Origin: Arenicellales bacterium
GTDB lineage: Bacteria; Pseudomonadota; Gammaproteobacteria; Arenicellales; UBA868
NCBI GenBank assembly: GCA_050256425.1
Contig: JBBWVW010000086.1
Coordinates: forward strand, 1,015 to 65,014
Direction: 5' to 3'
DNA length: 64,000 nucleotides
The notes beneath the pieces are model-generated. The model made no database searches, had not been told where the DNA came from, and saw only the letters and a list, made by a program, of their open reading frames with translations. How positions within the stretch are numbered: position 1 is the first letter of the stretch; the number at the start of each line of letters is the position of its first letter. Positions 9,076 through 25,082 of this stretch are shown piece by piece. The translations under genes were made by a program, and so were the position numbers.

Positions 9076-9374
9076 GTTATAAAACCGTTACCCACAAGAA
9101 GAAGCGGGCGACCGCGACTTCTTCTGGGCAATCAGTTCCTCATACTCGGCGCCGGGTAGAACCTCGGCGCATGGGTGCCCCTGTTTTGTCCGCTGGAACT
9201 GACCGGCAGTGACAACGCGATTACCAACCTCGGTTGCAGCTTTCTCGCTCACCTCGGTGATAGCGCACGTGCTGAACCCGGGTTGAGTCTGATGACGAAA
9301 TAAATGCTGCGCCAAAGACCGTAATCAGGAATTGCGACTGCCTTTCCCAGTTAGCTCACAAATCCTACTAACGC

Positions 9375-10187
9375 CTACATTTCCCGTTGCCAGGTATAAC
9401 GTTGCACCATTTTCGCTACGATGGCGTCAAGCGTATACCCGATGATGCCAATGACTACGACCATCGCTGATAAGTGATCGTATGACAATGTTTCCCTGGC
9501 ATCTTTGATCGCGTACCCAAGGCCTGAGCTAACGCCAAGCAGTTCCGCCGGAACCAGAACCACCCATGCGACACCCAGTGCCAGTCGTATTCCCGTAAAT
9601 ATATCGAAAGCAATTGCAGGAAAAATCACCTCTAATAACGTCTGTCTAAAATTTGCCCCAAGGTTTCTGGATACCTTAAACCATGCCGGATCCACTTTCT
9701 TTAATCCAGCAGCAGTCGCGTAAACAACAGGCCAAATGGCTGCGATTGCAATGAGAAAAATAATAGCTTGATCCCACCTGGGAAAAACAAACACCAGGAT
9801 AGGCATCCAGGATAGTGGGCTCACCATTCGTAGCAATTGAAATGGCTCATTACTGATCTGCTCAGTAACTTTGCTCAGACCGATCGCTATTCCTATTGGC
9901 ACACCAATTAAGACGGCTAAGAACAATCCAATCGCCAAACGGTAACCACTCGCCAGAACATTCTCGGTAATGTATCCGGATGAGAGTAGACCCGGCACCG
10001 CCTTCATTGTTGGAACTAAACCAAACTTGATAAAACTACTCGTCTCCGGGGTAATTGCCAGAAACCAGCTACCGATCGCCCAAAGGACGAGGAGGATTCC
10101 GACTCCTGTGGCCGGGTAAAGAACTCGGTCCCTCAACCAAACCAGACTTGTGTTCCGATCGATACCTTTAATATTTTCGCTAGCCAT
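9375..10187 (-). CDS. ABC transporter permease (NrtB/CynB/SsuC-like)
   Basis: LRMVSPLSWMP, EAA-like loop (SRNLGA) and LVPAELLGVSSGLGY. Confidence 0.9.
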   Translation of the reverse strand: MASENIKGIDRNTSLVWLRDRVLYPATGVGILLVLWAIGSWFLAITPETSSFIKFGLVPTMKAVPGLLSSGYITENVLASGYRLAIGLFLAVLIGVPIGIAIGLSKVTEQISNEPFQLLRMVSPLSWMPILVFVFPRWDQAIIFLIAIAAIWPVVYATAAGLKKVDPAWFKVSRNLGANFRQTLLEVIFPAIAFDIFTGIRLALGVAWVVLVPAELLGVSSGLGYAIKDARETLSYDHLSAMVVVIGIIGYTLDAIVAKMVQRYTWQREM

Positions 10188-10204
10188 GTCTTCAATACGT
10201 TAAG

Positions 10205-11023
10205 TTAACCACGATGCCAACTAAAACGCTTAATCAGTGCCATGCATACGCCGTCCATCAAGAATCCTAATATTCCGATTACCAGGATCATTACTGCCAG
10301 ATTGTCATACATCAAGTTTTCACGTGAGTCCTGGATCGTGTAGCCAAGACCTGAGGTTATACCAAGAAATTCTGCAGGCACAATGACAATCCACGCTACT
10401 CCGACGGCCAGCCGAATACCGGTTAAAACGTCAAATGCGATTGCTGGCAGAATGATCTCCTTCACGACATCCCACCAACGGGCACCGAGGTTTCGGGCAA
10501 CCTTGAACCACGAAGGGTCCAGCTTGGCAAGCCCAGCCGCAGTCGCGAAAGCGACGGGCCAAACCGCTGCCATCGAGATCAAGAAAATAATTGCCTGATC
10601 CCAGGTCGGCATAGCAATTACGGCTATCGGCTCCCAAGACAAGGGGCTTACCATTCTAAGAAATTGGAAGGGTGTATTACTTAACTTACGAAAAACTTTA
10701 CTTCTACCCATCAGAATCCCAATCGGCACTCCTGTGAGTATGGCAAGAAGCAAGCCCATTCCAAGGCGATAACCGCTCGCGAGACTTGCGTTTACTATGG
10801 TTCCGTCTTCGACTAAGTATGAGACCGCATTAAGAGCTGGGCCAGGCCCAAAATCGGCAAAACTGCTCGTTGAAGGGCTGCTCTCAAGTAACCAGCCACC
10901 ATACCACCAGAGACCAAACAAAATTGACAGCCCCATGAGGCTGTAAAACACTCGTGTTACCAGGGTTCTGAAGATTGCTCCCAGACGAGAGAAAGGTTGA
11001 TCGTTATTGGTCACTGTCGACAT
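10205..11023 (-). CDS. ABC transporter permease (NrtB/CynB/SsuC-like), second paralogue
   Basis: LRMVSPLSWEP, ARNLGA and IVPAEFLGITSGLGY. Confidence 0.9.
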   Translation of the reverse strand: MSTVTNNDQPFSRLGAIFRTLVTRVFYSLMGLSILFGLWWYGGWLLESSPSTSSFADFGPGPALNAVSYLVEDGTIVNASLASGYRLGMGLLLAILTGVPIGILMGRSKVFRKLSNTPFQFLRMVSPLSWEPIAVIAMPTWDQAIIFLISMAAVWPVAFATAAGLAKLDPSWFKVARNLGARWWDVVKEIILPAIAFDVLTGIRLAVGVAWIVIVPAEFLGITSGLGYTIQDSRENLMYDNLAVMILVIGILGFLMDGVCMALIKRFSWHRG

Positions 11024-11118
11024 AGCTAATGAAGAGTCTATTTTGTGGATTCTCAGCCAGTCTTCTTGATACGAATCGACGGGCCAAAGTACTCTATTCG
11101 ACTTTGATCGATCGCCGA

Positions 11119-11907
11119 CTATGGTGCTTCATCAGTGCCCCGTTCTTCGATACTTGAAGCCGCCCGGAATGTCTCCATTAAATGTTCGCGAAGTTTTTGA
11201 ACTTCGGAATCCTTAGCGTTACGCTCTTCTGGTAATGAAACGACGATCTCGTCCCTGATTTTCCCTGGTGAACCGGCCATGATCACGGCGCGGTCGGCCA
11301 TCAACACCGCTTCATCAATATTGTGAGTGACTATAACTAGATTTATTCCCAGGCTTTTTGCAATAGAGCGAACATCTTTTTGCAAAGCGGCCCGCGTGAA
11401 CGCGTCCAGAGCTGAAAATGGTTCATCAAGAAGCAGCATTTCGGGCTCCATAACCAAGGACCTTGCGAGCGCCACTCTTTGTTGCTGGCCGCCCGATAAA
11501 TCCTGAACGTTTGAGTCCGCAAAGTCTTCAAGATCTACGAGTTTTATGGTTTTCTCCACACGTTCTTGAATTTTTGATTCTGGCCAGTGAGCGAACTTCA
11601 AGCCGATGCCCACGTTCTGGCGAACATGCATCCACGGAAACAAATGGGGCGCTTGGAACATCATCACCCACCGCGGAGATGGATCCTTCACCGGGACATC
11701 ATCGATTCGGATTTCACCAGCAGTGGGGGCCAACAACCCTGCCATAATATGAAGTAAGGTCGACTTGCCACAACCAGATCGCCCAATAATTGCCAGTACC
11801 TCTCCAGGCAACGATTCTAGATTGACCTGGTCAAAGGTTATCGGGCCACGCGATGCATAGCTATGACTTAGTTCTTTTACGGCGATATGCACGCCCTGCT
11901 TACTCAT
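11119..11907 (-). CDS. ABC transporter ATP-binding protein (NrtD/TauB-like)
   Basis: GRSGCGKST, LSGGQQQR, LLLDEPF and VTH. Start is ATG 11907 or 11952. Confidence 0.93.
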   Translation of the reverse strand: MSKQGVHIAVKELSHSYASRGPITFDQVNLESLPGEVLAIIGRSGCGKSTLLHIMAGLLAPTAGEIRIDDVPVKDPSPRWVMMFQAPHLFPWMHVRQNVGIGLKFAHWPESKIQERVEKTIKLVDLEDFADSNVQDLSGGQQQRVALARSLVMEPEMLLLDEPFSALDAFTRAALQKDVRSIAKSLGINLVIVTHNIDEAVLMADRAVIMAGSPGKIRDEIVVSLPEERNAKDSEVQKLREHLMETFRAASSIEERGTDEAP

Positions 11908-12111
11908 TTCGCCCCTCCTCCTTACGATCTTTATATTTCTTGCGGCTTCCATAATAGGCCAAGCCGAAACTAATCTAACAACATCGACTAAATGCCATTA
12001 CAACATAATGGTTACTTGAATTAACCTTGAGGTTAGTAATAAGGTAATGCCTTTATACTTTAAGTATCCCATAAGTTATCCAAACAGTTAAACTGCAAAC
12101 ATACTTTCTCT

Positions 12112-12149
12112 AAGACGATCTAGTTATCTCCTAAATAGGAAATTCCTAT
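12112..12149 (-). promoter_or_regulatory. LysR-type operator copy 1, facing the ABC ATPase/permease operon
   Basis: Minus strand ATAGG-aattt-CCTAT-ttagga-GATAA-ctag-ATCGTCTT; contains a T-N11-A dyad. Confidence 0.75.
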
Positions 12150-12252
12150 TGGTGCTATTGGTTCTTCTTAAGAACAAGGGTAAACGTAAGAAATGCTAAC
12201 TCAAGATTTTACGATGGCAAACGGCCAATGAACTAGCCCTTGGGCAAAAACC

Positions 12253-13209
12253 ATGCCACGCAACACAATATTTCCTCGCTCCCTAAGGTACCTTTTAGCA
12301 GTCGCCAAGCACTCCAGTTTTACGCGCGCCGCAGAATCCTTGTTCGTTTCTCAGCCCGCTCTTTCCCAACAGATAAAACAACTTGAAGCGCAGATCGGCA
12401 TTCAATTGCTGGAACGTTCCGGACGGAATGTACACCTAACAGATGCCGGAGAAATTTATGTACACCACGTCAAGCGAGCGCTCGCAGAAATAAATGCTGC
12501 TGCGCAGGCCTTAGATGACCTAAGCGACCTAACGCGAGGCTCGCTGAACCTGGGGTTAACGCCAATAACCGACTACCTAACGGCGCCTCTAATCCGAGAC
12601 TTTATCACCAAATACCCGAGAATCTCTTTAAACACTATCGAGATGACACAGCAACAGATTGAAGAAGCGGTGCTGCAGGATCAGGTAAATCTTGGAGTCA
12701 TCTTCAGTGATTCATTTTCTCTTTCTACAAGATCGGCGGATCTAGAGATCTACACACTCTTAACTGACTCCCTCGTGTTGGCGGCCGCGAGTTCCACCCA
12801 TCTAACCACTAATGCTAATGAATGCCTCTATTTGGAAGAAGTTGGCTTAGTGAAGCACCCATTAGCGTTATTGAACTCACAGTTTGAGATGCGAAAGCAA
12901 ATTGATGCGTACTTTTCTTACCATGAGATTACGCCGAACGTCACACTAGAATCCAACTCACTCGGTGTAATTATCGAAGTCGTTCGCTCCGGAGAATTAC
13001 ATACAATATTACCCGCATCAATCGTCAAGTCACTAGGCGGTCTTACTCCACTCACGGTGAGCCCGCCGCTGCCGCAACACACTGTCACTATCATTATCAG
13101 AAAGTCTGCCTATCAAAGTCAGGCTTGTAGCGCTTTCCTTAAGCTTGCGCTGCTTTGGAGTCAGGTCCCTAGAGGCGTGCTCGCAGCAGCAAACAAGGCC
13201 CATGGATAA
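12253..13209 (+). CDS. cynR: CynR-like LysR-family transcriptional regulator
   Basis: HSSFTRAAESLFVSQPALSQQIKQLE and DLSDLTRGSL resemble E. coli CynR; cyanase is nearby. Confidence 0.8.
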   Translation: MPRNTIFPRSLRYLLAVAKHSSFTRAAESLFVSQPALSQQIKQLEAQIGIQLLERSGRNVHLTDAGEIYVHHVKRALAEINAAAQALDDLSDLTRGSLNLGLTPITDYLTAPLIRDFITKYPRISLNTIEMTQQQIEEAVLQDQVNLGVIFSDSFSLSTRSADLEIYTLLTDSLVLAAASSTHLTTNANECLYLEEVGLVKHPLALLNSQFEMRKQIDAYFSYHEITPNVTLESNSLGVIIEVVRSGELHTILPASIVKSLGGLTPLTVSPPLPQHTVTIIIRKSAYQSQACSAFLKLALLWSQVPRGVLAAANKAHG

Positions 13210-13355
13210 CCTAGACAACAACCTAAGTGAACCTTCTTTGGAGAGTTATCAATCATCGCACTTCATTCTTTTGAAAGCGCAAAGCCATTGTAATTAGCTG
13301 GTCTCTTGCTTGGCCGCAGCCTGTTTTTCAGTGATTTCTTTATCCGTCTTTCAAG

Positions 13356-14642
13356 TTAATCTACTTCCTTGCTGATTTGCCGATCAAACAACGACGGTCC
13401 ATAGAGCTCATTGGTGATAAGCGTGCAAATGGTCACAGCAATTATTGAGAAAATCGCCGCCTCGTAAGACAGGGTAAATTCAAGAACAATTAGAACCGTT
13501 GAAATCGGGGCCCCGAAAACAGCGGCAGCGACTGCAGCCATTCCTGCGATACTCAGACTTTCGCCTCCGGCAATTCCCAGAGCGGCTACCATTTTCCCAA
13601 ACAAACACCCTACCCCTGCGCCGATAAAAAGCGATGGCAAGTACACGCCGCCGTGCATCCCGCAGCCGATACATGTCACAGTAAGGAGCAGTTTAGATAT
13701 AACCAAAATTACTATTGTGGTCACCGCAAGATTGTTATGAAGAAGATCTGGAATTACATCAAGGCCAAGACCAAGCGCCCCGGGAACCCAAATTCCAATT
13801 ACTCCGCAGACCATTGCCGCAAAAATTAATGGCCCGATCCGCCCTTTCCAGGAATGATCAACCTTTTCGGTTACCTTCCCGAGCATAATCATGAAAACAA
13901 CTGCTGTAATCGCAAAAATAGGAGCGCCAAGGATAACAAACGGAAGTAACTCCAGCATCGAGCCTCCGACAACCTGATCGAATTGAATCCGACGTTCACC
14001 CAACATTTGTTCACTTAGGGCACTAGCCGTAATAGCCGCTATCGAAATCGGAGCAACTGCTCGTAGTGAGAATCGACGTAACACAACCTCATGGGAGAAA
14101 ACGATTGCCGCCATCGGCGTACCAAAGCCTGCGGCAATGGCGCCAGCAACACCGCATCCAATCCACGTCGAAGTAGAAATCGTGCTCCGAAGCACTCTAG
14201 AAACACCAGACCCGATAGCTCCACCGAAATGAACCAAGGGCCCATACTGTCCGACTGAAGCTGCCCCTCCAACCGAAATCAGCGCCGCCAGTGTAGAGCC
14301 AAAGCCAATTCGGATATCAACAACTTCACCAGATTGTGCAGCTTGAATCGTTTCTGCTGGGCCGTGAAACCGTTCGACTCTAAGGATGCGACGCAATCCA
14401 TATATGAGAAACGCCGCGGCCAGAAGAAATACCGGGCTGACAATTACTACCCATCCGTCCCCGTAACTTGAGGCGATGCGTCCAATAAAATCCGAGAAAT
14501 GTTTTATAGACTCTGCGATAAAAAGAAAGCCGCTCGCCGCGATGGCCATTATGGCTCCAATTCCCACTCCAACACCAACTCTTAAAAAAGAGTCTCTAAT
14601 AGGGCGATGACCCAGTTCTTTCACTGTTAAGTTTGTTTCCAT
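13356..14642 (-). CDS. CLC-family anion channel/transporter, atypical, no CBS domains
   Basis: GQYGPLVHFGG, GVAGAIAAGFGTPMAA, GGVYLPSLFIGA and AAVFGAPIS. Start trimmed to ATG 14642. Confidence 0.88.
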   Translation of the reverse strand: METNLTVKELGHRPIRDSFLRVGVGVGIGAIMAIAASGFLFIAESIKHFSDFIGRIASSYGDGWVVIVSPVFLLAAAFLIYGLRRILRVERFHGPAETIQAAQSGEVVDIRIGFGSTLAALISVGGAASVGQYGPLVHFGGAIGSGVSRVLRSTISTSTWIGCGVAGAIAAGFGTPMAAIVFSHEVVLRRFSLRAVAPISIAAITASALSEQMLGERRIQFDQVVGGSMLELLPFVILGAPIFAITAVVFMIMLGKVTEKVDHSWKGRIGPLIFAAMVCGVIGIWVPGALGLGLDVIPDLLHNNLAVTTIVILVISKLLLTVTCIGCGMHGGVYLPSLFIGAGVGCLFGKMVAALGIAGGESLSIAGMAAVAAAVFGAPISTVLIVLEFTLSYEAAIFSIIAVTICTLITNELYGPSLFDRQISKEVD

Positions 14643-14754
14643 ACTACCGGTCTGCAATCGTTGCCTTTGTGCACTATGAGACCAGCCCAGGTCAACGCCC
14701 AATCGTGCTATGGCTTCTCGAACCTTTTAAATGTTTCGTCTGGCGACGTGGCCC

Positions 14755-15195
14755 TCACCACGAACGGTACGGGAGAAACTTTCCACTCAAATCAAGGCGT
14801 ACTCGATCTCCATTTTCATTTTCTTCTCTAGATAAAGTCATTCTGAAATCGATCGCAGACATTATCCCATCCCCGAATTCCTCATGTATCAGCTCTTTAA
14901 TTGTCTCCCCATATACCCCTACCATTTCATAAAGCCTGTATATCACCGGATCCGTCGGTACGGTCTGTTCCCATTTTTTGTTTGGAAACTGCTGCAACGC
15001 AATTGATGCGTCCGCTGATAGCTCGAGATAGTTCACGACAGCATCCGCGTCCTCTTTATCCATATGGTTCATGCCAAGACAAGCCGAAACGACAAACTCA
15101 GGAGACATCGAGGTCTGCTCTGCTATCTGCCTCCATGAAACCGATTTCTTCGTTTTCGCTGTCTTGATCTCCTCTGACATCTTTACCTTATCCAT
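14755..15195 (-). CDS. cynS: Cyanate hydratase (cyanase)
   Basis: PTDPVIYRLYE, IHEEFGDGIMSAIDF and GKFLPY. ATG 15195 has a GGGAG SD. Confidence 0.96.
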   Translation of the reverse strand: MDKVKMSEEIKTAKTKKSVSWRQIAEQTSMSPEFVVSACLGMNHMDKEDADAVVNYLELSADASIALQQFPNKKWEQTVPTDPVIYRLYEMVGVYGETIKELIHEEFGDGIMSAIDFRMTLSREENENGDRVRLDLSGKFLPYRSW

Positions 15196-15298
15196 TTTCA
15201 AGCTCCCTAACCAAATTGTTTGTTGATGTATTGATGAACAACCTTATAGACCCAGGTACAACATTGTGATCTGATCGCGCCCACGCACTATGTGATAT

Positions 15299-16303
15299 CT
15301 AGTTCTGGCCAGAACGCTGAAGTAGTCTGGCGTCATTTGCCATCCCATAGATTTCAATGTTCCAACCTAACTCGACATCCAGTTGCTTTCGAGCAAGTCC
15401 GCGAAGTCGCTCGCCGAACCTCTCTATTTCAGATACGTCTAATTTCTTTTTCCCGATCAGAATATTCGGATAACGAGAATCCAGCCGTAGGCTTGAATCG
15501 GCGTCCTGCAAATCCCCAAGTTCAGCAATAATAGCTTTTGCTTTTGGGAGTTCTAGCTGCGACTTGGCATTATCGAATTCTTTTTGAATCACATAAAACG
15601 CATGTCCTGTGCGAAAACGCTCTGTTGAGTATGTTTTCTGATGTAGTGCTTTCATTCGAGAAAGCTTCTCCTCGAGTAAGGCAACGCGTCTTCGCTCTGG
15701 CTTAAGGACGGCCTGGACGATCACGCCGGTCTTAAGTTTCTCGCACAGCCTTGTGACCGTATCGACGTGGCCACGCTTTATTGTCTCTACCCGCCCATCT
15801 CGCCTCACAATCGTCGCGCGTAAAAAAGAATCGAGGATGCCGTTCTCAGCAAAACACGCGTTGCTGGCGAGGGCTCCACCAATGGTTCCGGGAATTGCCC
15901 CCAGAAAGGTAAGGTCAAAACCGTTTTCCAGCGCTTTTAGCACAATGTCTTTGGTGAATGCTCCTGCGCCCACTCGTATGGCGTTATTGGGCAGCACCTC
16001 AAAACCATTAAAGCGGGCCCCTAGGGACACTACTAGGCCCGCGAACCCCTCCTTTCTGAAAATCACATTCGAGCCTGACCCAGATGGAAGCACGGCAATT
16101 GATTCGGGCAGATCACGCATCAGAACACATAGGTCTGCCATATTCAAAGGTTGAATCAGTGCTACGGCCTTCCCACCAGAGTTAAACCACGTTTGTAGCG
16201 CAAAGTGAGCATCAAACTCAATATCACCTTGGATGTTGCCCAAGTAAGGCTTCGCGTCATTAGCCGTTAACGGCGACCCATCCTTACTGATAATGCTGCG
16301 CAA
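15299..16303 (-). CDS. MurB-fold FAD-binding protein with substituted catalytic residues
   Basis: FAD motifs GSGSNV and GAIPGTIGGAL are retained. SxGSVF is replaced by RTGHAF, HANF by YPNI, and LxxE by LGWN. Confidence 0.7.
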   Translation of the reverse strand: MRSIISKDGSPLTANDAKPYLGNIQGDIEFDAHFALQTWFNSGGKAVALIQPLNMADLCVLMRDLPESIAVLPSGSGSNVIFRKEGFAGLVVSLGARFNGFEVLPNNAIRVGAGAFTKDIVLKALENGFDLTFLGAIPGTIGGALASNACFAENGILDSFLRATIVRRDGRVETIKRGHVDTVTRLCEKLKTGVIVQAVLKPERRRVALLEEKLSRMKALHQKTYSTERFRTGHAFYVIQKEFDNAKSQLELPKAKAIIAELGDLQDADSSLRLDSRYPNILIGKKKLDVSEIERFGERLRGLARKQLDVELGWNIEIYGMANDARLLQRSGQN

Positions 16304-16474
16304 AATAGTGCTACCTCGGCGAATACTATCTTTCGTTAGTTTCTCATCCGCTTTATCTTCGACGCCATCTTAGATTGTCTGACACACCAGGGTGGCCCCG
16401 CTTGAAAAAGTGTATCTACAGCCATTCTCATTGTAAAACTCTGGGATTCTCAGTGATCAGCTCGCCTAGGCCAG

Positions 16475-16512
16475 ATAGGTTTTTCCTATTCTCTGGATAA
16501 AATAATCGTCTT
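16475..16512 (+). promoter_or_regulatory. LysR-type operator copy 2, facing DUF1348
   Basis: ATAGG-ttttt-CCTAT-tctctg-GATAA-aata-ATCGTCTT running into TTGAAT (-35-like). Confidence 0.78.
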
Positions 16513-16628
16513 GAATTTGACCACATCGCTGTCATGATGTTTCGTAGACTTGAAAGGCTCGATCTTCAAAATAGTCAAATTCACTATAGTTCGTCGAACT
16601 GAAATAACCAGAGGTTTTGGGAGGATTA

Positions 16629-17099
16629 ATGCAACCAACTGATCTTAAACCCCCGTTTAACTCGTCTACTGCAGCCAAAAAAGTACAGATGGCTGAGAAC
16701 GCATGGAATACTCGCGATCCAGAACGTGTGAGCCTGGCCTATACACCAGATAGCACATGGCGGAATCGCTCAGAACATTTCCAGGGACGAGACGCCATCG
16801 TGAAATTTCTTACCAAGAAATGGGAGAAAGAACTTGATTATCGTTTAGTCAAAGAACTCTGGGCATTTTCAGAGAACCGCATAGCCGTACGATTCCAGTA
16901 TGAATGGCGCGATCAAGAACAACATTGGCACAGATCATATGGAAACGAGCTGTGGGAATTTTCCGAAGAGGGCTTAATGCGGCGGCGGGAAGCAAGCATC
17001 AATGATGTTGCTATTGATGTTAGCCAACGTCGATTTTTCTGGCCCAGCCCAGGCCATCGACCCTCTGACCATGCTGGCCTGCTTCAGAGCCCAGAGTAA
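16629..17099 (+). CDS. DUF1348 / SnoaL-like (NTF2-fold) protein
   Basis: [36 protein letters not shown] and [10 protein letters not shown]; GGAGGA SD. Confidence 0.9.
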
Positions 17100-17228
17100 T
17101 TTAATGAGCTTATTAACCAGTGGTGGAATACTGGCGCCCGGTCCCCCTATTCTACAAATCGAGCCGCGGTGTGCTGCCACCCCAGGCAAGAAACTGCGCG
17201 GTGAACTACTGCCTTCGTGATCGTATTC

Positions 17229-17645
17229 TCAGGAAGTCTTTTGGGTGTGAGCGTTAAATTTTTTGAGAAACCCGGCTAACGAATAAATAGCTTGCTGGAC
17301 TTCGGAATCACGCAACAATCGAATCAATCCCAGATACCCACCATGACTCATGTTTTTTTCATCATTAGCGCCATCAAGGAGTTTCTCAGAGGTAAGCGCT
17401 TTTGCGACGCCCTCTAAATTCTCTTGCACTGCAGGGTCGCCTAGCGCCTGCAAGAGATGCATCAGCCCTTCGTTTCTCGTCACACGATCCATCAGGATCA
17501 TTCCTTCCCCAATCGTTGCTGCCAAACGTGTAACGATATCGTCAGTCATTGCATCCTGCGCGGCTGCAATGGCTGATGCTAACTCAATTAATTTATCAAG
17601 ATTTTGGGTTTCCAGATTGGCGCCCGCTTCTTTCAATTCGTTCAT
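17229..17645 (-). CDS. DUF1641-domain protein
   Basis: GYLGLIRLLRDSEVQQAI terminus; the family typically follows SQR-like genes. Confidence 0.75.
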   Translation of the reverse strand: MNELKEAGANLETQNLDKLIELASAIAAAQDAMTDDIVTRLAATIGEGMILMDRVTRNEGLMHLLQALGDPAVQENLEGVAKALTSEKLLDGANDEKNMSHGGYLGLIRLLRDSEVQQAIYSLAGFLKKFNAHTQKTS

Positions 17646-17695
17646 CGTATTTTTTCCATAGACATTGCAGTTGATGTTCTGGAAACTACTTTCGA

Positions 17696-18829
17696 TCAGA
17701 GAAGACCTCGCGCCGAGGACCAATACCATTGGTTATAGGACATCTTCAGCATGTGCATCGACTTGGTTGGCGGCCTGATTTCCGGTGGATCAATATAATT
17801 GAAGCATGCATTAGTTGCGCGGTCCTGGTCTGCTTCGATAAAGCAATACACCTTGCCGTCGTACTCTCGTGTTGCCGTCCCGGTTCGACAAAGAGATGCG
17901 ATGTTCTCACCGATTACTTCACTTTCAAAGTGGGCGGTTGAACCTGTTTTGCTGATTGGCAGGTTAGTGGTATCACCAAGCACGAAGACGTTATCCTGGC
18001 CGTCCATCCTTAGCGAATAACGGTCAGTCGGTATCCAGCCCCCCTCGCCAAGGTTATTATCTTCTATCACCTGCATACCTCTGTGAGGAGGGACGGCGAC
18101 TAACAGATCGAATTCTTTTTCTGTCCCCTCTTCGCTATGTACGATTTTGTTTTCGACATCGATCTCTTTCATATTGAAGAAAGTTTCGTAATCGACTTCC
18201 ATCCGCGCAAATTCCGGGATTGCCCATTTCGCGATGTTTTCAATGTTGTGTATCCGCGCAATCGGATAGGTGTACTTGAGATCGACCTTGTCGCGAATGC
18301 CGCGTTTTTTAAAAAATTCATGCAGCATGAAAGTGATCTCGATCGGCGCGATGGGACACTTATGCGGAACACCAACCACCACCACTACCTTGCCCCCTTC
18401 GAAGTCGCGCAGTTTTTTAAACATACTGACAGCGCCGTCTCGGGTATACGGTGTTTCAGACGACTCCTTAAGTCCAGGCACCTCGTCATATACCGCTTCA
18501 CAACCAGTCGCTATCACTAGCATGTCATAGTCATGGACAACCCCGGCTTTGGTACGAACGCGGTTACTGCTCATTTCAAATTCTTCAACAGGATCAACGA
18601 AAAACTTGATGCCCGGCTCCAAAAGACTCGATTGATCACGACAAATATCGTTAAGAGCCATTTTGCCAAACGCAACGTAAAGGAGCCCAGGCTGATACCA
18701 GTGTTGGTCCGAAGCGGACAACATTGTGATCTCCACGCTGCCTTGTCTGATTTCTTTGGAGAGTCGTCGCGCAACATTGTTTGCGGCGATCGTTCCGCCC
18801 ATTCCACCCCCGACGAACAGAATTCTCAT
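17696..18829 (-). CDS. sqr: Sulfide:quinone oxidoreductase-like flavoprotein (type III-like)
   Basis: GGGMGG FAD motif, HKCPIAPIE, VPPHRG, LPISKTGSTAHFE and VYCFIE (two active-site Cys). Confidence 0.8.
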   Translation of the reverse strand: MRILFVGGGMGGTIAANNVARRLSKEIRQGSVEITMLSASDQHWYQPGLLYVAFGKMALNDICRDQSSLLEPGIKFFVDPVEEFEMSSNRVRTKAGVVHDYDMLVIATGCEAVYDEVPGLKESSETPYTRDGAVSMFKKLRDFEGGKVVVVVGVPHKCPIAPIEITFMLHEFFKKRGIRDKVDLKYTYPIARIHNIENIAKWAIPEFARMEVDYETFFNMKEIDVENKIVHSEEGTEKEFDLLVAVPPHRGMQVIEDNNLGEGGWIPTDRYSLRMDGQDNVFVLGDTTNLPISKTGSTAHFESEVIGENIASLCRTGTATREYDGKVYCFIEADQDRATNACFNYIDPPEIRPPTKSMHMLKMSYNQWYWSSARGLL

Positions 18830-18914
18830 TTAGACCTCCTTATGAAATGCCAAACCCACTTTCGAAAAATACTTTTCACCACATACAAACTAACACCAGA
18901 CGGAAAGGGATATT

Positions 18915-19145
18915 TCACTTTATCTTGCGAACCTTTATGTGCCATACGTCATCGATCTTTTCGTTGCTAACAAGCTCGTGACCCACTTTACTGATCCACT
19001 CCGGTACATCGTTTGCAGAACCTTTATCGGTAGACAGCAGTTCTAACTGGTCTCCGACTCCAGCCCGCTTCATGAATGAGATCAGTTCCATCAACGGCCC
19101 TGGACAAAAAGTGTTCCGGGCATCGACTATTTTTTCTTCGGACAT
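18915..19145 (-). CDS. tusA: TusA-family sulfur carrier
   Basis: VDARNTFCPGPLM (CPxP) and DVPEWI motifs. Confidence 0.9.
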   Translation of the reverse strand: MSEEKIVDARNTFCPGPLMELISFMKRAGVGDQLELLSTDKGSANDVPEWISKVGHELVSNEKIDDVWHIKVRKIK

Positions 19146-19183
19146 AACGCTTCTCCACAAATGACACTTAGTGCCAGTTTCGT

Positions 19184-19576
19184 CTAAAACGAGACTATTC
19201 TTCCGTCTTCTGCATCAGAGAGGAACCGGGTCAATCCAGTAGCAGGTCCAAACTCTAACATCAGATCATCTGGACTAACCTTAAGGAGATCTAGAGCCAT
19301 TGAGCAGGCCAATAATTTAGCATCTCCGAGTTCGGCTGCCTGTTCAAATAATACCCTGAACTCTGGGACGCCCTTGACACCGATTAAATCCCCGAATGGT
19401 CCCTCCTTTGGCGGCACTAAGGTCGCATTCTGCTTAACGAGGAATTGAAGAGCGTTCATCGAAAAAAAGACCGACACTTCGCTTCCACTTGCTGCCGCGA
19501 CAGAAGCGACCATCGCTGCCATTTGCAGTTTTTCGAGTGTTCCAGAAACACAAATTATTGATAGTTTGCTAGTCAT
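19184..19576 (-). CDS. DsrE/DsrF/DrsH-like (DsrE2-type) sulfurtransferase
   Basis: SGTLEK, AAASGSEVSVFFS and KLLACSMALDLL (conserved Cys). Confidence 0.85.
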   Translation of the reverse strand: MTSKLSIICVSGTLEKLQMAAMVASVAAASGSEVSVFFSMNALQFLVKQNATLVPPKEGPFGDLIGVKGVPEFRVLFEQAAELGDAKLLACSMALDLLKVSPDDLMLEFGPATGLTRFLSDAEDGRIVSF

Positions 19577-19732
19577 GCTGATACTTGATTGGTAGTGAAC
19601 CGAACCTGTGTGAAGGAGCTCTAATTCTTGAAGAGCCTCACCTAACGGAGTTTTACGAAACTAGGCTTGTCATCTTCAGAGGCGCAACCCTATGAGTCTA
19701 CGAGACATCCTGACCCCAATGTGGCCAGTTTC

Positions 19733-19770
19733 AAGACGATAATTTTATCTGAAGAATAGGAAAAACCTAT
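19733..19770 (-). promoter_or_regulatory. LysR-type operator copy 3, facing dsrE-tusA-sqr
   Basis: Minus strand ATAGG-ttttt-CCTAT-tcttca-GATAA-aatt-ATCGTCTT running into TTGAAA. Confidence 0.78.
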
Positions 19771-19877
19771 ACTGGCCAAGCAAACTTATAACTAAAGCGT
19801 TAAAAACCTCAACAAGCAGTGTTCCTGAAAATCTACTATTCAGCCAGATCAGATGACCTTTGGGCTTGGTAGAGAAA

Positions 19878-20606
19878 TCAGCTCTCGCTTTGGATATGCC
19901 GCCTCACTGCCCAGCCCGAAAAACCCCCAAGCACCAGCCATAAGATCAGACTGCTAAGGCCAGTGGCTAGCAGAAAATCTTTTGACAACTCGGAGAGTTG
20001 ATCAGCGATGGCTATCGGAAACCCTTCGTAGAGATTCTCCGCGTGCGGTGCACCGTATATATGTGGCGCGCACAGAAGAACAACCAACCCGAGCCACTTC
20101 CATGGGCTACTCAGTATGTAGGCCAGGTACATACCTGCCCCACTACAGATTACAGTCGCTGTCCACCACCATTGCCTTAGTTCTAACGCAGCACCGGAAA
20201 CCCCCGGGATTTCAGGAGAAATACCAAAAGAAGGAGCGGCAAAAAAGGCAATGAAGCCTCCAAGGCCCCAAATGATCCCGGAAGAGGCGCTGATTTCAGT
20301 ATTTTTCCCAAACTTCAGTGAGGCCGTAGCTATTAAAGCGACCAGGACAAGTGCAAATCCAACAGCAGTTAATACGTTCGATAAAATCGTAAACAGAGTT
20401 CGCTCGATTCCATCACTGGGTTCCCAGTCCTCATCATGCTGGCCATCAGCGACTTGCGCTGTGTCTCCGGCGCCGACTTTCAGGCTTTCAAATTTCTCAG
20501 CCTGAACAATGATCGGAATCACTTGCCAGCGCTGGGCCAGACTGAGGGCAATGCCCCCAATCAGCCCAGCGATAAGCGCTATAACGATCAGCCGGCGAAA
20601 CAGCAT
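19878..20606 (-). CDS. cbtA: Cobalt transporter subunit CbtA
   Basis: VIPIIVQAEKFE, WEPSDGIERT, APSFGISPEIPG, RQWWW and PHIYGAP. Start trimmed to ATG 20606. Confidence 0.88.
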   Translation of the reverse strand: MLFRRLIVIALIAGLIGGIALSLAQRWQVIPIIVQAEKFESLKVGAGDTAQVADGQHDEDWEPSDGIERTLFTILSNVLTAVGFALVLVALIATASLKFGKNTEISASSGIIWGLGGFIAFFAAPSFGISPEIPGVSGAALELRQWWWTATVICSGAGMYLAYILSSPWKWLGLVVLLCAPHIYGAPHAENLYEGFPIAIADQLSELSKDFLLATGLSSLILWLVLGGFSGWAVRRHIQSES

Positions 20607-20619
20607 AACCGCCGCGGCC

Positions 20620-20814
20620 TTAGTGGCAGGGGAAGCCTTGAGAATGGCGCATATCGTGCCCCGCATTGTGGACTGATGATGTCTGAACAAAAGCGGCGGC
20701 AAACAACACTGTGGCACCAAGGGCAAACGCGCAAACAAGCTGCAAGCCCTTGCTGGCAAGCATTGGCGCTACCTGTGGAACTTCAACAACGTTTTGGTTG
20801 ACATGATTTTGCAT
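20620..20814 (-). CDS. cbtB: Cobalt transporter subunit CbtB
   Basis: Single TM helix followed by HNAGHDMRHSQGFPCH. Confidence 0.9.
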   Translation of the reverse strand: MQNHVNQNVVEVPQVAPMLASKGLQLVCAFALGATVLFAAAFVQTSSVHNAGHDMRHSQGFPCH

Positions 20815-20888
20815 AACTAAATCTCCTGGATTAAATTTTTTGACCACTAATCTTTAACCACTTTAGATGGTATTTTCGTATCGTCCGT

Positions 20889-22292
20889 TTAGATGATAAA
20901 CACCTCTTCGCGTTCGAACGGATTATCACCCTTTGGCACACTTGGATCGTTTCTCCATTCCGGATTAGCCATTAAAGAATTCCTTATATAGTCGTACTGC
21001 ACCAAGTCATTGACGACGAACTCTGGATCTAAAGTATCCAAGAACGTTCTATCGCCAGTGACTACCGTTTCGTTTTTCAACTCGTTTACTACCAAGCGTG
21101 TCGCAGAGGGGTAAGGCCATGCTTGGAAATCAATCCGATTTTGACCCCATTCTGTATGACGGATAGCTGCAGGATTATTGTAGTACGCCGGGTCGTAGAA
21201 CAACATAGCGCGCTCGACCACCTTGCTGGGGAAGGGATAGTACTTCTTGCCCTCACGCGACAACATCTGGGCCATTTCCTTGCGGTTAGATCCGGTGTAC
21301 AACTGGGCTTTAACAATCGCGTTATGCACTCCTTGAGCCCACGCAGCATGTTCTGGATCCATACAATCATCTTCATGCATGACTACGACACAGCATGGGT
21401 GTCCTTTCCAGACGTCGCCAGTGAATCGAAGCACTTTGCCGCCTGCCTTGATTTCACCTAAGGCATTAAAGGGTTCCGCAACGCAATACCCATCTATTTT
21501 TTTGGCCGCCAAAGCTGGTGGCATATCGGGCGGTGCTAAGACCTGGTAATTACATTCGTTTGCCGCCAAAGCTGCATCTTGTGGTCGAATGACCGATGTA
21601 ATACCTGCCGCTTTCATGATTTTTTGAGAGACGATATTATGAATTGAGTACCAATATGGTACAGCGAATTGCTTACCGCCAAAATCTGCCGGCGTCTTAA
21701 TATCTGCGTTTACAACGATCGCCGATCCGTTACTGTGATCCCAGGCGGTGACCTTCACCGGATACTGATTGTTATACCTCATCCAAATTGGTATCGGGAT
21801 AAGCATATGGGTCAGATTAAATCGGTGTGCAGAGAAAGCCTCTACCAGTGGAGACCAACCTCTAATGAGGGTTGGACGCTTGGAGTCAATACCTTCTTCT
21901 TTGAAGAAGCCCAGTTCATGTGCGACCAGAAGTGCTGCTGCGTCCGTGATCGGTATGTAGCAAATATTGATAACTGGATCGAATTTTTTCTTACCGAATG
22001 CGGGAAGCCCTGTAAGCCCAGTACCAGCAAGTGCTGCGCCGGCCTGAAGGACCGAGCGGCGGCTGATTCCCGTTCCCATAAATCCGCCAAACAGTGGATC
22101 AGAATTTGTCTTTAGGTATGGATCATCAATTCCATCACCAAATTTCTTGGCATCGAGGGGCAGACCCTTTTCATCAATGGGACCACCATCGACAAACTGC
22201 GCTTCCTCTGGGTCTAATAACTCTTTCTTAATAGCCGTAGACTGCGCTTTTGCTGCTAGAAACTTCACCTCTTCCTGTGTTAGCTTAGACAT
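20889..22292 (-). CDS. ABC transporter substrate-binding protein (NrtA/CmpA/CynA-like)
   Basis: YIPITDAAALLVAHELGFF, AVPYWYSIHN, GYCVAEPFNA and HPCCVVV; internal TAT motif SRRSVLQ. Confidence 0.9.
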   Translation of the reverse strand: MSKLTQEEVKFLAAKAQSTAIKKELLDPEEAQFVDGGPIDEKGLPLDAKKFGDGIDDPYLKTNSDPLFGGFMGTGISRRSVLQAGAALAGTGLTGLPAFGKKKFDPVINICYIPITDAAALLVAHELGFFKEEGIDSKRPTLIRGWSPLVEAFSAHRFNLTHMLIPIPIWMRYNNQYPVKVTAWDHSNGSAIVVNADIKTPADFGGKQFAVPYWYSIHNIVSQKIMKAAGITSVIRPQDAALAANECNYQVLAPPDMPPALAAKKIDGYCVAEPFNALGEIKAGGKVLRFTGDVWKGHPCCVVVMHEDDCMDPEHAAWAQGVHNAIVKAQLYTGSNRKEMAQMLSREGKKYYPFPSKVVERAMLFYDPAYYNNPAAIRHTEWGQNRIDFQAWPYPSATRLVVNELKNETVVTGDRTFLDTLDPEFVVNDLVQYDYIRNSLMANPEWRNDPSVPKGDNPFEREEVFII

Positions 22293-22479
22293 ACCTTTCC
22301 TCCAGCGTTAGCCGTTTTCTATTTAAAGTTAAAGTCTAATTCCTTCCAGAACGTATACTCGTCTTCTTATTACATCTGTCTCTCGTATATAACCTCACTA
22401 ACTTCCAATTGATTGTGTGCGTCCAATAGTAACTTGCGTTTTGGTACTATCGAGCCCAGCTGGCCTGCTTGCATTTCGC

Positions 22480-22815
22480 TCAAACTGCGTTCAGTCGCGT
22501 TTCAATAACCTTCATTTGTTGCGCAAGATCTTCTTCCGTAATAACTCCCCGTAGAATCATGCTGTGAGCAAGTGCAAGAAGTTGACGCTCTGGATGTGGA
22601 ATGTGCTTATAGTGATCCTCTACCAGATCATCCTCTTCACCCCGTCGTTCTAGAACAGGCAGGGCACACGCCCCCTCGTTGAGAACTTCACAGGTACTTT
22701 CGAGTGTTATCCTCCAGGGAGGATCTGGATTATCAACGCCATACTCCTCGCATAGGTCGGCCCACACCCGTCCTTCCTTTCCAATCTGTTCCAGCAATGG
22801 AATTGGTTTAGACAT
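22480..22815 (-). CDS. Thiocyanate hydrolase activator/accessory protein (P15K-like)
   Basis: Directly after scnC. NHase-beta-like C-terminus HPERQLLALAHSMILRGVITEEDLAQQM. Confidence 0.7.
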   Translation of the reverse strand: MSKPIPLLEQIGKEGRVWADLCEEYGVDNPDPPWRITLESTCEVLNEGACALPVLERRGEEDDLVEDHYKHIPHPERQLLALAHSMILRGVITEEDLAQQMKVIETRLNAV

Positions 22816-22824
22816 TTTTCAGAC

Positions 22825-23535
22825 CTAATGACCGTAAGGATGTACTGCGCGGTGAATCGGCCGCGTGTCGTCCGCCTTTCGATCTGCGCGTGGCATTGCG
22901 ACACCGATCAAGCAATCCCGTGTCACGATCTCCGCTAGTTGATCTTCGCTCCACCCTTCAGTGCCTTCAGGGCGGGTTGGCATCACCACGTATCTGGTCT
23001 TCTGGTTGGAATCAGCGACCCTTATTTCGACATCCTCGGGCAACTGCAGGCCGAACTCTGCTAGGACTTGGCGCGGCCACCTGACCAGTCGGCGACGATA
23101 ATTAGGGGTTCTGTACCACTCAGGGGACTGACCCAGTATAGGTCTTGGGTAGCAAGAACAAAGCGTGCACACCACTACATGCTTAAGCGTTGGTGTATCC
23201 ACCAGAATCCGGGGGTTGCAATAGTCGCTCGGTGTCCCAAACTTGGTTGGCATCGTGTTAATCCAGTCAATGCCTACATCAAGACTCGCCTTTACAGGAT
23301 CGTCTATACATAGTTGCTTGTAATCTTCATCTAGCCACGCCTTTGCGACCAATCGACCCGCGGGAAGCGGCCCAAGGGTATGCATATACTCTGTCCACTG
23401 GTTATGGTCATCTTGAGTGAATAGCCCTTTTTCAATACAGAGTTCACGGACCGCTACCTCAAGTACTTCAAAGTCGCTGACCTCATCCACCATAGGCGCA
23501 GGTGGACGGTGATCGTGATCATGTGAGTTTGACAT
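22825..23535 (-). CDS. scnC: Thiocyanate hydrolase gamma subunit (cobalt-binding)
   Basis: VVCTLCSCYPRPILGQSPEWYR. Thr marks Co-type, and Arg after YP is SCNase-like (NHases have Trp). Closely resembles Thiobacillus thioparus ScnC as I recall it. Confidence 0.95.
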   Translation of the reverse strand: MSNSHDHDHRPPAPMVDEVSDFEVLEVAVRELCIEKGLFTQDDHNQWTEYMHTLGPLPAGRLVAKAWLDEDYKQLCIDDPVKASLDVGIDWINTMPTKFGTPSDYCNPRILVDTPTLKHVVVCTLCSCYPRPILGQSPEWYRTPNYRRRLVRWPRQVLAEFGLQLPEDVEIRVADSNQKTRYVVMPTRPEGTEGWSEDQLAEIVTRDCLIGVAMPRADRKADDTRPIHRAVHPYGH

Positions 23536-23612
23536 TATGTTTTCCTCTTTACGTCAGACGAGTTCTTTTTCGTTTTTTACTTTGTGATCGATAGTAAAAT
23601 TATCTAGGCCGA

Positions 23613-23966
23613 TCAAATAGCCTCTAACCATCTTTCAGATAGTTCGGTCTCGAGCGTATCCCCTGCAAATTTGGGGGGATAATCTGGCCATAGGTCAGTT
23701 TGATTGAACACTACACTGTAGAACCACTCTGGAGTGTCTGTGTTATCCCAAGCCTCGTCCTCGGCAGCAGGACTTTCGTAAACCAACTTGACGACTATTG
23801 CCTCTGCTTCGCGAAGGTACATCTGCGAACGGGAATAGAAGATATCTGGCAAGTTGCGGATGCGCACTTTATCGCCCACGTTAAACTTCGGCTTTCCTGC
23901 CTCTCCCTTGAAGCACTGAGGATCCCCAATGCCAGTTGCTTTCTCAGCGTGATGATTATTACTCAT
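23613..23966 (-). CDS. scnA: Thiocyanate hydrolase alpha subunit
   Basis: ATGIGDPQCFKG, KFNVGDKVRI, LVYESPAAEDEA and DTLETE. Confidence 0.93.
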   Translation of the reverse strand: MSNNHHAEKATGIGDPQCFKGEAGKPKFNVGDKVRIRNLPDIFYSRSQMYLREAEAIVVKLVYESPAAEDEAWDNTDTPEWFYSVVFNQTDLWPDYPPKFAGDTLETELSERWLEAI

Positions 23967-24393
23967 AAATCTCCCCTCGCTTCTTAACCTCGTCGATCTT
24001 ATTAACCAATTCGGTCAGGGTAATATGCTGCTTGTCGACCAGCACTAGCGCCGCTGTCATCAACCACCTGCCGTAATACGGTAGCCCGAGGTATTGGGTC
24101 TGCCCGACGTCCACGTTTTGCCGCCGCCTACGCTCTTCAGCGTTCCAAACGCCACGCCATGCTAATACCTCACAGGTGACAAAAGTATTGTGTTCCCAAA
24201 TCTCCTCTTCTTTTTCTTCCCACGTTATAGGAATGTCGGCCTCACCTCCAACATCATGGGAGGAGCGTGTGTAAGCGCGGTAATGCGCGTTATCAATTAG
24301 GTCGGGATAAGGGGCGTGCTGCGGCTGATGAAGCGCAGGCTGAAGCTGCGCAACAATATTTAGATGCCGCATGATATTTTCGCGAGTTGACAT
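23959..24393 (-). CDS. scnB: Thiocyanate hydrolase beta subunit
   Basis: QPALHQ, HDVGGEAD, EKEEEIWE, LAWRGVWNAEERRRRQN and YLGLPYYGRW. Start trimmed to ATG 24393; overlaps scnA by 8 nt. Confidence 0.93.
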   Translation of the reverse strand: MSTRENIMRHLNIVAQLQPALHQPQHAPYPDLIDNAHYRAYTRSSHDVGGEADIPITWEEKEEEIWEHNTFVTCEVLAWRGVWNAEERRRRQNVDVGQTQYLGLPYYGRWLMTAALVLVDKQHITLTELVNKIDEVKKRGEIYE

Positions 24394-24458
24394 ATCTGTT
24401 TTGCGTCTCCGAATTGGAATTCTCAGCTTAAAACTACTCCTTGATCGTCCTTTGTGCC

Positions 24459-24496
24459 AAGACATTCTGGTTATTGACTGTATAAGAAAAGTCTAT
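24459..24496 (-). promoter_or_regulatory. LysR-type operator copy 4 (diverged), facing scnB
   Basis: Minus strand ATAGA-ctttt-CTTAT-acagtc-AATAA-ccag-AATGTCTT with identical spacing, running into TTGGCA; TAGTTT lies 18 nt further on. Confidence 0.65.
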
Positions 24497-24852
24497 TTAA
24501 TTTCTCAGGCAATCTCCAAACCTCTAGGATCAATCCAGACATCTAAGATTGTATAGCTTATTAACCATATCTCAATCATGGTAAATAAGCTTTAGTCGCC
24601 TGTATTTTTGAATAGCTGGCCCAATAGCGGGCTCACGCAAGTGTTTTGAAGCAACACGGGCATCAAGCCCTTCACCTAACACGATGCCCACGAGCAAACC
24701 CGAAGCAACAGCCACCCAAAAAACCGAACAGCCAAAAGCTGTATTTCAGCCTTCAACGCACCGTAACGATATGATTAGATTAATGAGCCTGGGCTTTAAT
24801 GGCGTTTCCAACACCTTGTCGCAAACTTGAACCTATTTCTTGCTACGGATTT

Positions 24853-25035
24853 TTAGGAAACTGAAGACATCTTATTCTTCCTTTTCTCAAGTTCCTTTAG
24901 CAGCGTAGTTTTCGCATAAGGCTTAAGAGCCTTCCATTTCTGACATTCCGCTTTAGTCCGCCCGCAGCCACGACACCAGCCTTTCGGTCCACCAAAATCG
25001 CAAACATCAATACACGGGCTTTTGTTGTGTTTCAC
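24853..25035 (-). CDS. DUF1289-domain small Cys-rich protein
   Basis: SPCIDVC...GWCRGCGRT..E...W pattern. Confidence 0.85.
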   Translation of the reverse strand: MKHNKSPCIDVCDFGGPKGWCRGCGRTKAECQKWKALKPYAKTTLLKELEKRKNKMSSVS

Positions 25036-25082
25036 AAATTCTTCGATCGCCGTCTATATCCCAATGATTACCAGTAATCAAA

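Follow-up and report, generated by a model that had tools for sequence, protein, structure and literature searches.

A thiocyanate hydrolase island with predicted CynR-type control in a marine sulfur-oxidizing gammaproteobacterium

The 64,000-nucleotide stretch analysed here (hereafter the window) comes from contig 86 (JBBWVW010000086.1) of the 2.67 Mb, 91% complete assembly GCA_050256425.1 of an Arenicellales bacterium of the UBA868 lineage, and it carries an island of 17,516 bp (positions 9209-26724) that includes the genes of a thiocyanate hydrolase (SCNase). We assigned the open reading frames (ORFs) to families by profile searches with Pfam and NCBIfam and by sequence matches to structures in the Protein Data Bank (PDB). 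A preliminary description of this DNA had named scnBAC with a P15K-like gene, an ATP-binding cassette (ABC) transporter, cbtBA, dsrE-tusA-sqr-DUF1641, cynS, a CLC gene and a LysR-type regulator gene, and all of these were found where it had placed them. It had ended the block at position 24500; the block is there, and a blastn comparison with the island-free congener G008, in which homology stops at 9208 and restarts at 26725, extends it to 26724. A MurB-like flavoprotein, a DUF1348 protein, a DUF1289 mini-ORF, a 158-aa ORF and a PhzF-family gene lie inside it in addition to the genes listed earlier.

The Pfam families NHase_beta_N, NHase_beta_C and NHase_alpha fall on three successive minus-strand genes, scnB (23959-24393), scnA (23613-23966) and scnC (22825-23535), whose products match chains B, A and C of PDB 2dd4, the Thiobacillus thioparus SCNase, with E values of 7.2e-63, 4.1e-50 and 2.6e-124. 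The SCNase gene order scnB-scnA-scnC is thus kept, in which the two halves of the nitrile hydratase beta subunit, N- and C-terminal, are represented by the beta and alpha subunits, and nitrile hydratase alpha by the catalytic gamma subunit. The scnB ORF reaches 24465, and its start is most likely at 24393, since the T. thioparus match begins at ORF residue 25. The gamma subunit scored 416.8 bits with SCNase against 177.5 bits with the best nitrile hydratase (E = 3e-51), and the alpha subunit 172.4 against 27.3 bits; the only PDB matches of the beta subunit were SCNases. ScnC contains the motif VCTLCSCYPRP, and its claw region (vvctlcscyprpilg) is identical to that of 2dd4_C, including the Arg that follows the claw (YPRP), where the mutant chain of 3vyg has a Trp. 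Cobalt-type nitrile hydratases (PDB 1v29, 1ire, 3qxe) resemble the island enzyme in fold, in the claw CTLCSC, in the cobalt requirement and in having a small beta-related activator, but the island enzyme differs from them in that its beta subunit is encoded by two genes, in the Arg instead of Trp after the claw motif and in sequence scores far below those obtained with SCNase. We assign the three-gene enzyme as thiocyanate hydrolase (EC 3.5.5.8), which is predicted to convert thiocyanate to carbonyl sulfide (COS) and ammonia. Elsewhere in the same genome, contig C47 carries a second nitrile-hydratase alpha-type gene (11216-11758), which is probably a true nitrile hydratase because its score with the NHase_alpha model exceeds that of scnC (294 vs 227 bits).

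To see which genes accompany scnC in other genomes, we confirmed ScnC relatives by tblastn in at least 492 genome contigs and counted co-occurrence in the best 80 of these loci, with up to 10 kb of flank per side and all island proteins as queries. The 80 loci belong to Gamma-, Beta- and Alphaproteobacteria and to contigs binned as Gemmatimonas. The P15K-like SCNase activator gene (22480-22815, minus strand, 111 aa) starts 10 nt after scnC and directly follows scnC in 75 of the 80 loci; its product is 53% identical to that of the ORF following scnC in T. thioparus DSM 505 and has faint similarity to NHase_beta_N (E = 0.05).

The remaining functional modules of the island are also encoded mostly on the minus strand. 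The ABC transporter consists of an ATPase (11119-11952, minus; ABC_tran, E = 1.3e-36; 71/80 loci), permease 1 (10205-11023, minus; BPD_transp_1, E = 1.3e-22; 69/80), permease 2 (9375-10187, minus; BPD_transp_1, E = 1.2e-20; 69/80) and a periplasmic binding protein of the NrtA/CmpA/SsuA kind (20889-22292, minus; NMT1_2, E = 1.2e-32, and TAT_signal; 74/80), whose nearest solved relatives are components of nitrate and bicarbonate transporters. About 75 residues precede the twin-arginine motif of the binding protein, and this long N-terminal region is probably real, because it is conserved across taxa from about residue 40. The cobalt transporter subunits are CbtA (19878-20606, minus; NCBIfam 201.8 bits, cut-off 182.9; 30/80) and CbtB (20620-20847, minus; 59.6 bits, just below the cut-off of 64.4; 28/80). 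The cbtA ORF reaches 20759, and its start is most likely near 20606, since the family match begins at residue 53. Cyanase (cynS, 14755-15201, minus) was recognized by Pfam Cyanate_lyase and CYNS_N and by NCBIfam (149.4 bits, cut-off 113.3), and occurs in 50 of the 80 loci. The sulfur genes comprise those for a DsrE-family protein (19184-19576, minus; DrsE_2, E = 1.3e-13; 61/80), the sulfur carrier TusA (18915-19160, minus; E = 1.7e-19; 64/80), a flavoprotein of the sulfide:quinone oxidoreductase (SQR) family (17696-18829, minus; best PDB match human SQOR, E = 1.5e-34; 63/80) and a DUF1641 protein (17229-17729, minus; E = 2e-6), which follows the SQR-like gene in 56 loci and is likely the partner of the flavoprotein. 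The SQR-like protein has a Cys opposite each of two Cys of human SQOR (in the KC-AP and SC/YC stretches), and its FAD-binding fold begins at residue 2, with no N-terminal signal.

This accessory set accompanies scnBAC in most of the 80 loci, as was found by the neighbourhood search that had been proposed as a check. The usual layout is a divergent LysR gene followed on one strand by scnB-scnA-scnC-P15K-ATPase-binding protein-permeases-(CbtBA)-DsrE-TusA-SQR-DUF1641; scnB, scnC and the genes for the binding protein, DsrE and SQR are colinear on one strand in 57 of the 60 loci that hold all five. The ATPase gene adjoins the binding-protein gene in 69 of 70 loci, whereas in the window the two are 9 kb apart. 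A single colinear operon with adjacent transporter genes is found neither in the window nor in its genus, where the transporter is divided and four or five units take the place of the operon. What the cluster contains is already known and was published in 2017: a NitT/TauT ABC transporter, DsrE, TusA, SQR, a hypothetical protein, cyanase and a cobalt transporter are drawn beside scnABC of T. thioparus DSM 505 and Thioalkalivibrio thiocyanodenitrificans (Berben et al. 2017; PMC5328954, Fig. 3), and this whole set, with the ABC genes, DsrE, TusA, SQR, the trailing hypothetical gene (DUF1641), cyanase and the cobalt transporter beside scnBAC, is present in the window. A passage of PMC5458468 terms the gene set a 'conserved operon', citing Kantor et al. 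2015. The preliminary description had regarded several accessory genes as having no established role in thiocyanate metabolism, which overstates their novelty. What is peculiar to this genus among the 80 loci is limited to the CLC and MurB-like flavoprotein genes, the 158-aa ORF and the splitting of the transporter.

Compared with the scn clusters of T. thioparus DSM 505 and THI115 and of Thioalkalivibrio, the island has matching gene content, including the P15K-type gene and the divergent LysR gene; identities to the DSM 505 locus (L063) are 76% for ScnC, 64% for the binding protein, 65% for SQR and 49% for LysR. In T. thioparus, as in the island, an operator (see below) stands before scnB. 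The island differs in having four or five units with an operator copy each in place of the colinear operon, in the 9 kb that separate the ATPase and permease genes from the binding-protein gene, in its extra genes (CLC, MurB-like flavoprotein, DUF1289, 158-aa ORF and PhzF-like) and in its setting, a low-GC island of a pelagic marine gammaproteobacterium. Public records of the ScnBAC clade of the window give the Red Sea and the isolate SI039_bin78. Two of the other loci deserve mention. The contig L069, from a 'Rhizobium sp.' metagenome-assembled genome (MAG), encodes ScnBAC identical to those of T. thioparus DSM 505 and of a MAG labelled T. denitrificans, and is probably mis-binned, and L064 (Thiobacillus sp. 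63-78) has an additional scnB-scnA pair without scnC about 3 kb upstream of a full scnBAC.

Four copies of an operator-promoter element occur in the window, each aimed at a gene start. The core of the repeated 5' region reads ATAGG-N5-CCTAT-N6-GATAA-N4-ATCGTCTTG, and we scored the copies against a 39-bp bipartite pattern with 24 fixed positions. Copy 1 (12108-12149, minus strand, one mismatch) faces the ATPase-permease unit and lies between this unit and the divergent regulator gene. Copy 2 (16475-16516, plus, no mismatch) faces the DUF1348 gene, in the divergent region that this gene shares with the MurB-like/cynS/CLC unit. Copy 3 (19729-19770, minus, no mismatch) faces dsrE-tusA-sqr-DUF1641, and copy 4 (24455-24496, minus, five of the 24 fixed positions mismatched) faces scnBAC-P15K-binding protein-cbtBA. 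The next best site in the window has seven mismatches. Copies 2 and 3 lie within a 99-nt inverted repeat (16452-16550 and 19695-19793), the arms of which are two copies of one 5' region, belonging to DUF1348 on the plus strand and to dsrE on the minus strand. We considered the repeat as the ends of a mobile cassette and rejected this, as each arm stands upstream of a gene in the same relative orientation and contains the operator; the arms are duplicated promoter regions. A riboswitch or other RNA in the repeated 5' regions was likewise rejected, since a search of positions 7000-28000 with Rfam gave no match at E ≤ 1.

The element is not confined to this genus. In 50 of 79 loci, among them that of T. 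thioparus, scnB is preceded within 420 nt by ATAG-N7-CTAT followed by ...GTCTTGGA; the background rate for ATAG-N7-CTAT is 0.04 per 450 nt, and in 27 cases a LysR gene is the divergent neighbour of the motif. A weight matrix built from 45 sites, all from outside the genus of the window, ranked the four copies first in the 64 kb, with copy 1 at the top (22.7 bits), followed by copy 3 (20.7), copy 4 (18.2) and copy 2 (14.6); the fifth site scored 5.3 bits. When the same matrix was applied to 4 kb around E. coli cynR, it gave a single match of 26.0 bits, the next being at -16.6. This match lies in the cynR-cynT spacer, is aimed at cynT and begins with ATAAGTAAA. According to PMC5002191, this sequence is R1, the site of high affinity in the DNase footprint that Lamblin and Fuchs obtained with CynR; PMC5002191, itself a footprinting study, describes it as the inverted repeat IR1, centred at -66. 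As judged by this match, the island operator and the footprinted site between cynR and cynT of E. coli are homologous.

The regulator gene of the island (12253-13209, plus strand; LysR homologue in 71 of the 80 loci) exceeds the NCBIfam cut-off of the CynR equivalog model (318.9 bits, cut-off 277), and its product is 41% identical to E. coli CynR (E = 7e-81); we assign it as a CynR orthologue. The relations of the operator and the identity of the regulator together make a CynR orthologue acting at four promoters the best-supported model, in which CynR would bind at about -65 for recognition and over the -35 region for activation; binding, inducer and activation are all predictions of this model. 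The local CynR-like regulator over a coherent thiocyanate unit that had been proposed earlier thus gains support from the conserved neighbourhoods and the four operator copies. A literature search found no paper connecting CynR or a LysR regulator with scn genes. New here are the CynR orthology, the operator before scnB and the split operon with multiplied operators, which are modest additions.

The comparison with the E. coli cyn system (Sung & Fuchs 1988; Lamblin & Fuchs 1993, 1994, as far as they are summarized in PMC5002191) shows the same divergent arrangement of regulator and target, a gapless alignment of the cynTSX operator with the island layout, in which R1 is the top weight-matrix match, and cynS in the regulon of both. 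In contrast to E. coli, the island has neither cynT (beta-carbonic anhydrase) nor cynX, and no CynX-type or MFS family was detected by Pfam among the island genes scanned. The island regulon adds SCNase, cobalt supply, the ABC importer and the sulfur-relay module, and has four target promoters where the E. coli system has one.

The composition of the island sets it apart from its surroundings, as the term AT-richer block had implied. Its GC content is 0.478, compared with 0.601 in the left and 0.579 in the right flank, and in 1-kb steps GC is 0.44-0.52 at about 9-27 kb and 0.53-0.64 (mostly 0.55-0.63) elsewhere. GC at third codon positions (GC3) of 21 island genes ranges from 0.40 to 0.57 and that of 16 flank genes from 0.62 to 0.74, without overlap (Mann-Whitney p = 3e-7; overall 0.49 vs 0.68). 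Of 25 species genomes of the genus, 7 have scnC; it was not detected in any of 16 genomes representing other families of the order. We located the homologous site in relatives with the help of a gene for an M20 peptidase on the right side of the island. In G008, G024, G005 and G020 the gene of an RRM-domain protein (8710-9075 in the window) is only 0.35-1.2 kb away from a MobA-like gene (26729-27316). G008 is the closest relative, with flank proteins 87-100% identical to those of the window, and G024 and G005 are closed genomes, both without the island at this site. In G008, G024 and G005 a membrane-protein gene of the HPP family (PF04982) lies in the gap, which is empty in G020. Since this gene occupies the site in island-free congeners, the spacer is a hotspot for alternative cargo. 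In G004 the island is inserted at the same site, and the ScnBAC proteins of the window and of loci L001-L005 form one clade on a long stem (support of 100 in the SH-like approximate likelihood ratio test, SH-aLRT).

Composition, the empty sites in congeners and the patchy distribution in the genus support horizontal acquisition of the island and hence the earlier suggestion that it had moved into its host. The island is missing from the closest relative but present in congeners further removed, which calls for at least two events of gain, loss or replacement within the genus. The likeliest route of entry or exchange would be homologous recombination in the conserved flanks; tRNA-targeted integration was rejected, as there is no tRNA in the window. 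Some further differences were seen near the insertion site. The HPP-family gene is at 2988-3860 of L093 (G008) and is also found in L094 and L095. Just left of the island, a Ferric_reduct and molybdopterin oxidoreductase gene pair (MsrQ/MsrP-like, 6806-8394) is present in G004, G005 and G024 and missing from G008. The RRM-domain protein has a Gly-rich tail encoded by GGC/GGT repeats (8953-9081), which is shorter in G008 (protein of 101 aa vs 121 aa).

The other genes of the island are less widespread or less easily placed. The CLC anion channel/transporter gene (13356-14702, minus; Voltage_CLC, E = 3.6e-59) directly follows cynS and occurs in 4 of the 80 loci (L001-L004), all of the ScnBAC clade of the window. 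In its product GQYGP aligns to GREGP of E. coli ClcA, so that the gating glutamate is replaced, and the central Tyr is a Phe. The MurB-like FAD_binding_4 flavoprotein (15299-16303, minus; E = 1.8e-13; 3/80 loci, all of this genus) scored 119 bits with the NCBIfam MurB model, far under the cut-off of 259. The DUF1348 protein (16629-17099, plus; NTF2/SnoaL fold; E = 7.6e-64) matches PDB 2imj (E = 9.8e-58), itself titled 'hypothetical protein DUF1348', and its gene borders the scn cluster in 18 of the 80 loci, Thiobacillus included. Upstream of scnB lie a Cys-rich DUF1289 mini-protein of 60 aa (24853-25035, minus; E = 3.3e-15), the 158-aa ORF (25083-25559, minus), which had no Pfam or NCBIfam match and has homologues (66-72% identity) in four of the 80 loci only (L002-L005), and, at the island edge, a PhzF-family isomerase-like gene (25549-26349, minus; Pfam E = 2.6e-45; NCBIfam 107 bits, cut-off 76). 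PhzF-family genes recur within a few kb of scn clusters in 26 of the 80 loci, among them those of Thiobacillus, Halochromatium and Thiohalophilus, and are only 22-30% identical to the copy in the window.

Genes elsewhere in the genome code for form II RuBisCO (875 bits with NCBIfam, cut-off 489), SoxB (834 bits, cut-off 550) and DsrB (535 bits, cut-off 341.5) with DsrA adjacent. By its gene content the host is a sulfur oxidizer with a CO2-fixation enzyme, like known SCNase hosts. A literature search combining thiocyanate with UBA868 found nothing. The flanks of the island contain genes for PhyH, two AMP-binding enzymes, enoyl-CoA hydratase, thiolase, a short-chain dehydrogenase/reductase (SDR) and PhaE/PhaC; in the right flank, 35228-39913 holds the thiolase, SDR reductase and class III-type polyhydroxyalkanoate (PHA) synthase genes (PhaE, PhaC-like).

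To summarize, we consider it likely (probability about 0.8) that the island was acquired and gives a marine sulfur-oxidizing, CO2-fixing gammaproteobacterium the carbonyl sulfide route of thiocyanate use under CynR-type control. We infer the individual steps from family membership; the identity of ScnBAC is shown by sequence comparison. An NrtA/CynA-type ABC importer, made up of the Tat-exported binding protein, two permeases and the ATPase, would bring thiocyanate, and probably cyanate, into the cytoplasm. CbtBA would supply Co2+, which P15K would load into SCNase, and ScnBAC would hydrolyse thiocyanate to COS and ammonia. COS would then be hydrolysed to H2S and CO2, and the sulfide oxidized by the cytoplasmic SQR-like flavoprotein with its DUF1641 partner, whose product, sulfane sulfur, may pass via DsrE and TusA to the rDsr/Sox machinery of the host. 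Cyanase would remove cyanate. The CynR orthologue is predicted to bind the bipartite operator, with ATAG-N7-CTAT for recognition, followed by an activation site that ends in GTCTTG at -35. In most taxa one such promoter would drive one long operon. In this genus four operator-promoters would serve scnBAC-P15K-binding protein-cbtBA, dsrE-tusA-sqr-DUF1641, DUF1348 (with the divergent MurB-like/cynS/CLC unit) and the ATPase-permease unit. Since an operator copy stands before each of the four units, the regulon would have been kept although the operon was broken.

Several results weigh against this interpretation. Scans for consensus sigma-70 promoters and intrinsic terminators gave hits at or below chance, which is why only gene order and operator position were used to infer the transcription units. 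The classic marks of a mobile element are present in part: composition is deviant and the site is empty in relatives, and integrase, tRNA and repeats are missing, as there is no tRNA in the window, no integrase or transposase Pfam family among the island genes and no flanking direct repeat. The SQR-like protein scored 308 bits with the NCBIfam type III SQR model, under its cut-off of 525. No dedicated enzyme gene for the conversion of COS to H2S was identified, and no beta- or alpha-class carbonic anhydrase was found in the 91%-complete host assembly, island included, while 6 of 10 congeners, three of them island carriers, have one beta-class gene. Besides the genome of the window, this class was not found in G008, G004, G021 and G022; the search for CsoSCA was without a positive control. 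Because 6 of 10 congeners hold the gene, the absence may reflect an assembly gap or a recent loss shared with G008, and for the same reason we dropped the lack of a COS hydrolase as a firm feature of the system.

Among other explanations of the locus, it is unlikely that the island serves mainly as a module for scavenging nitrogen from cyanate or from pseudohalides in general, with CynR sensing cyanate, the NrtA/CynA-like importer carrying it, and SCNase and the sulfur genes being secondary and merely detoxifying sulfide. The regulator score above the CynR equivalog cut-off, the match of the operator to the E. coli cyanate-operon site, the presence of cynS and the nitrate and bicarbonate transporter parts as nearest solved relatives of the binding protein would all fit such a module. 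However, 30 of the 80 loci lack cynS within 10 kb, and importer, regulator and operator stay with scnBAC there too; scnB is immediately preceded by the operator in 50 of 79 loci, and DsrE-TusA-SQR-DUF1641 is strand-colinear with scnBAC in 57 of 60. Slightly less probable still is an island that was never transferred, being ancestral in the genus and repeatedly lost, its low GC due to a local mutational or expression bias. Consistent with ancestry, ScnBAC of the genus is monophyletic, mobility genes are absent from the island, and in G000 and G004, which have it at the same site, island genes are 41-89% identical and thereby bracket the 74-83% of the flank genes. This is opposed by the GC3 of the island, about 19 points under that of the flank genes tested, by the absence of scnC from all 16 genomes of the other families of the order, by the HPP-family gene at the site in the closest relative and both closed genomes, and by the long stem of the ScnBAC clade among unrelated taxa.

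The preliminary description had seen in the locus a self-contained thiocyanate regulon moved into a host with heterotrophic-looking flanking genes, and the PHA and acyl-CoA genes on which it relied do lie in the flanks. They are not indicative of heterotrophy, and the reading of the host as a heterotroph otherwise without sulfur oxidation fails because the same genome encodes form II RuBisCO, SoxB and DsrA/DsrB, above curated cut-offs; we regard such a host as highly improbable. Even harder to sustain is a split-beta cobalt nitrile hydratase in place of SCNase: for all the likeness in fold and claw, gamma scores 417 bits with SCNase against 178 with the best nitrile hydratase, beta matches SCNase alone in the PDB, the Arg after the claw is retained, and a separate nitrile-hydratase-type alpha gene is present on another contig of the genome.

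The acquired, CynR-controlled thiocyanate island that we favour could be taken further, albeit speculatively. The scn CynR orthologue may be a dedicated thiocyanate sensor, with a promoter that has been conserved between E. coli cynT and scn clusters in over 50 species, and DUF1348 may be an unrecognized step of the pathway, since it has its own operator copy and recurs beside scn in 18 of the 80 loci. It is similarly tentative that each fragment kept or gained a promoter copy after the operon had split. In genomes in which neither an alpha- nor a beta-class carbonic anhydrase was found, DUF1348 might handle COS; the same reasoning would also single out the MurB-like flavoprotein and the CLC protein without gating glutamate, whose genes belong to the divergent unit.

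As to gene content, the cluster is of a known type, here in an island of a marine sulfur oxidizer. For thiocyanate hydrolase clusters in general, the analysis offers a model of regulation, namely a CynR orthologue at a conserved operator that matches the footprinted E. coli site. The genus would show an operon in the course of breaking apart, with the same control site kept by each piece. Ecologically, a pathway known from bioreactors and soda lakes is extended to free-living marine sulfur oxidizers, for which thiocyanate could supply both nitrogen and reduced sulfur.

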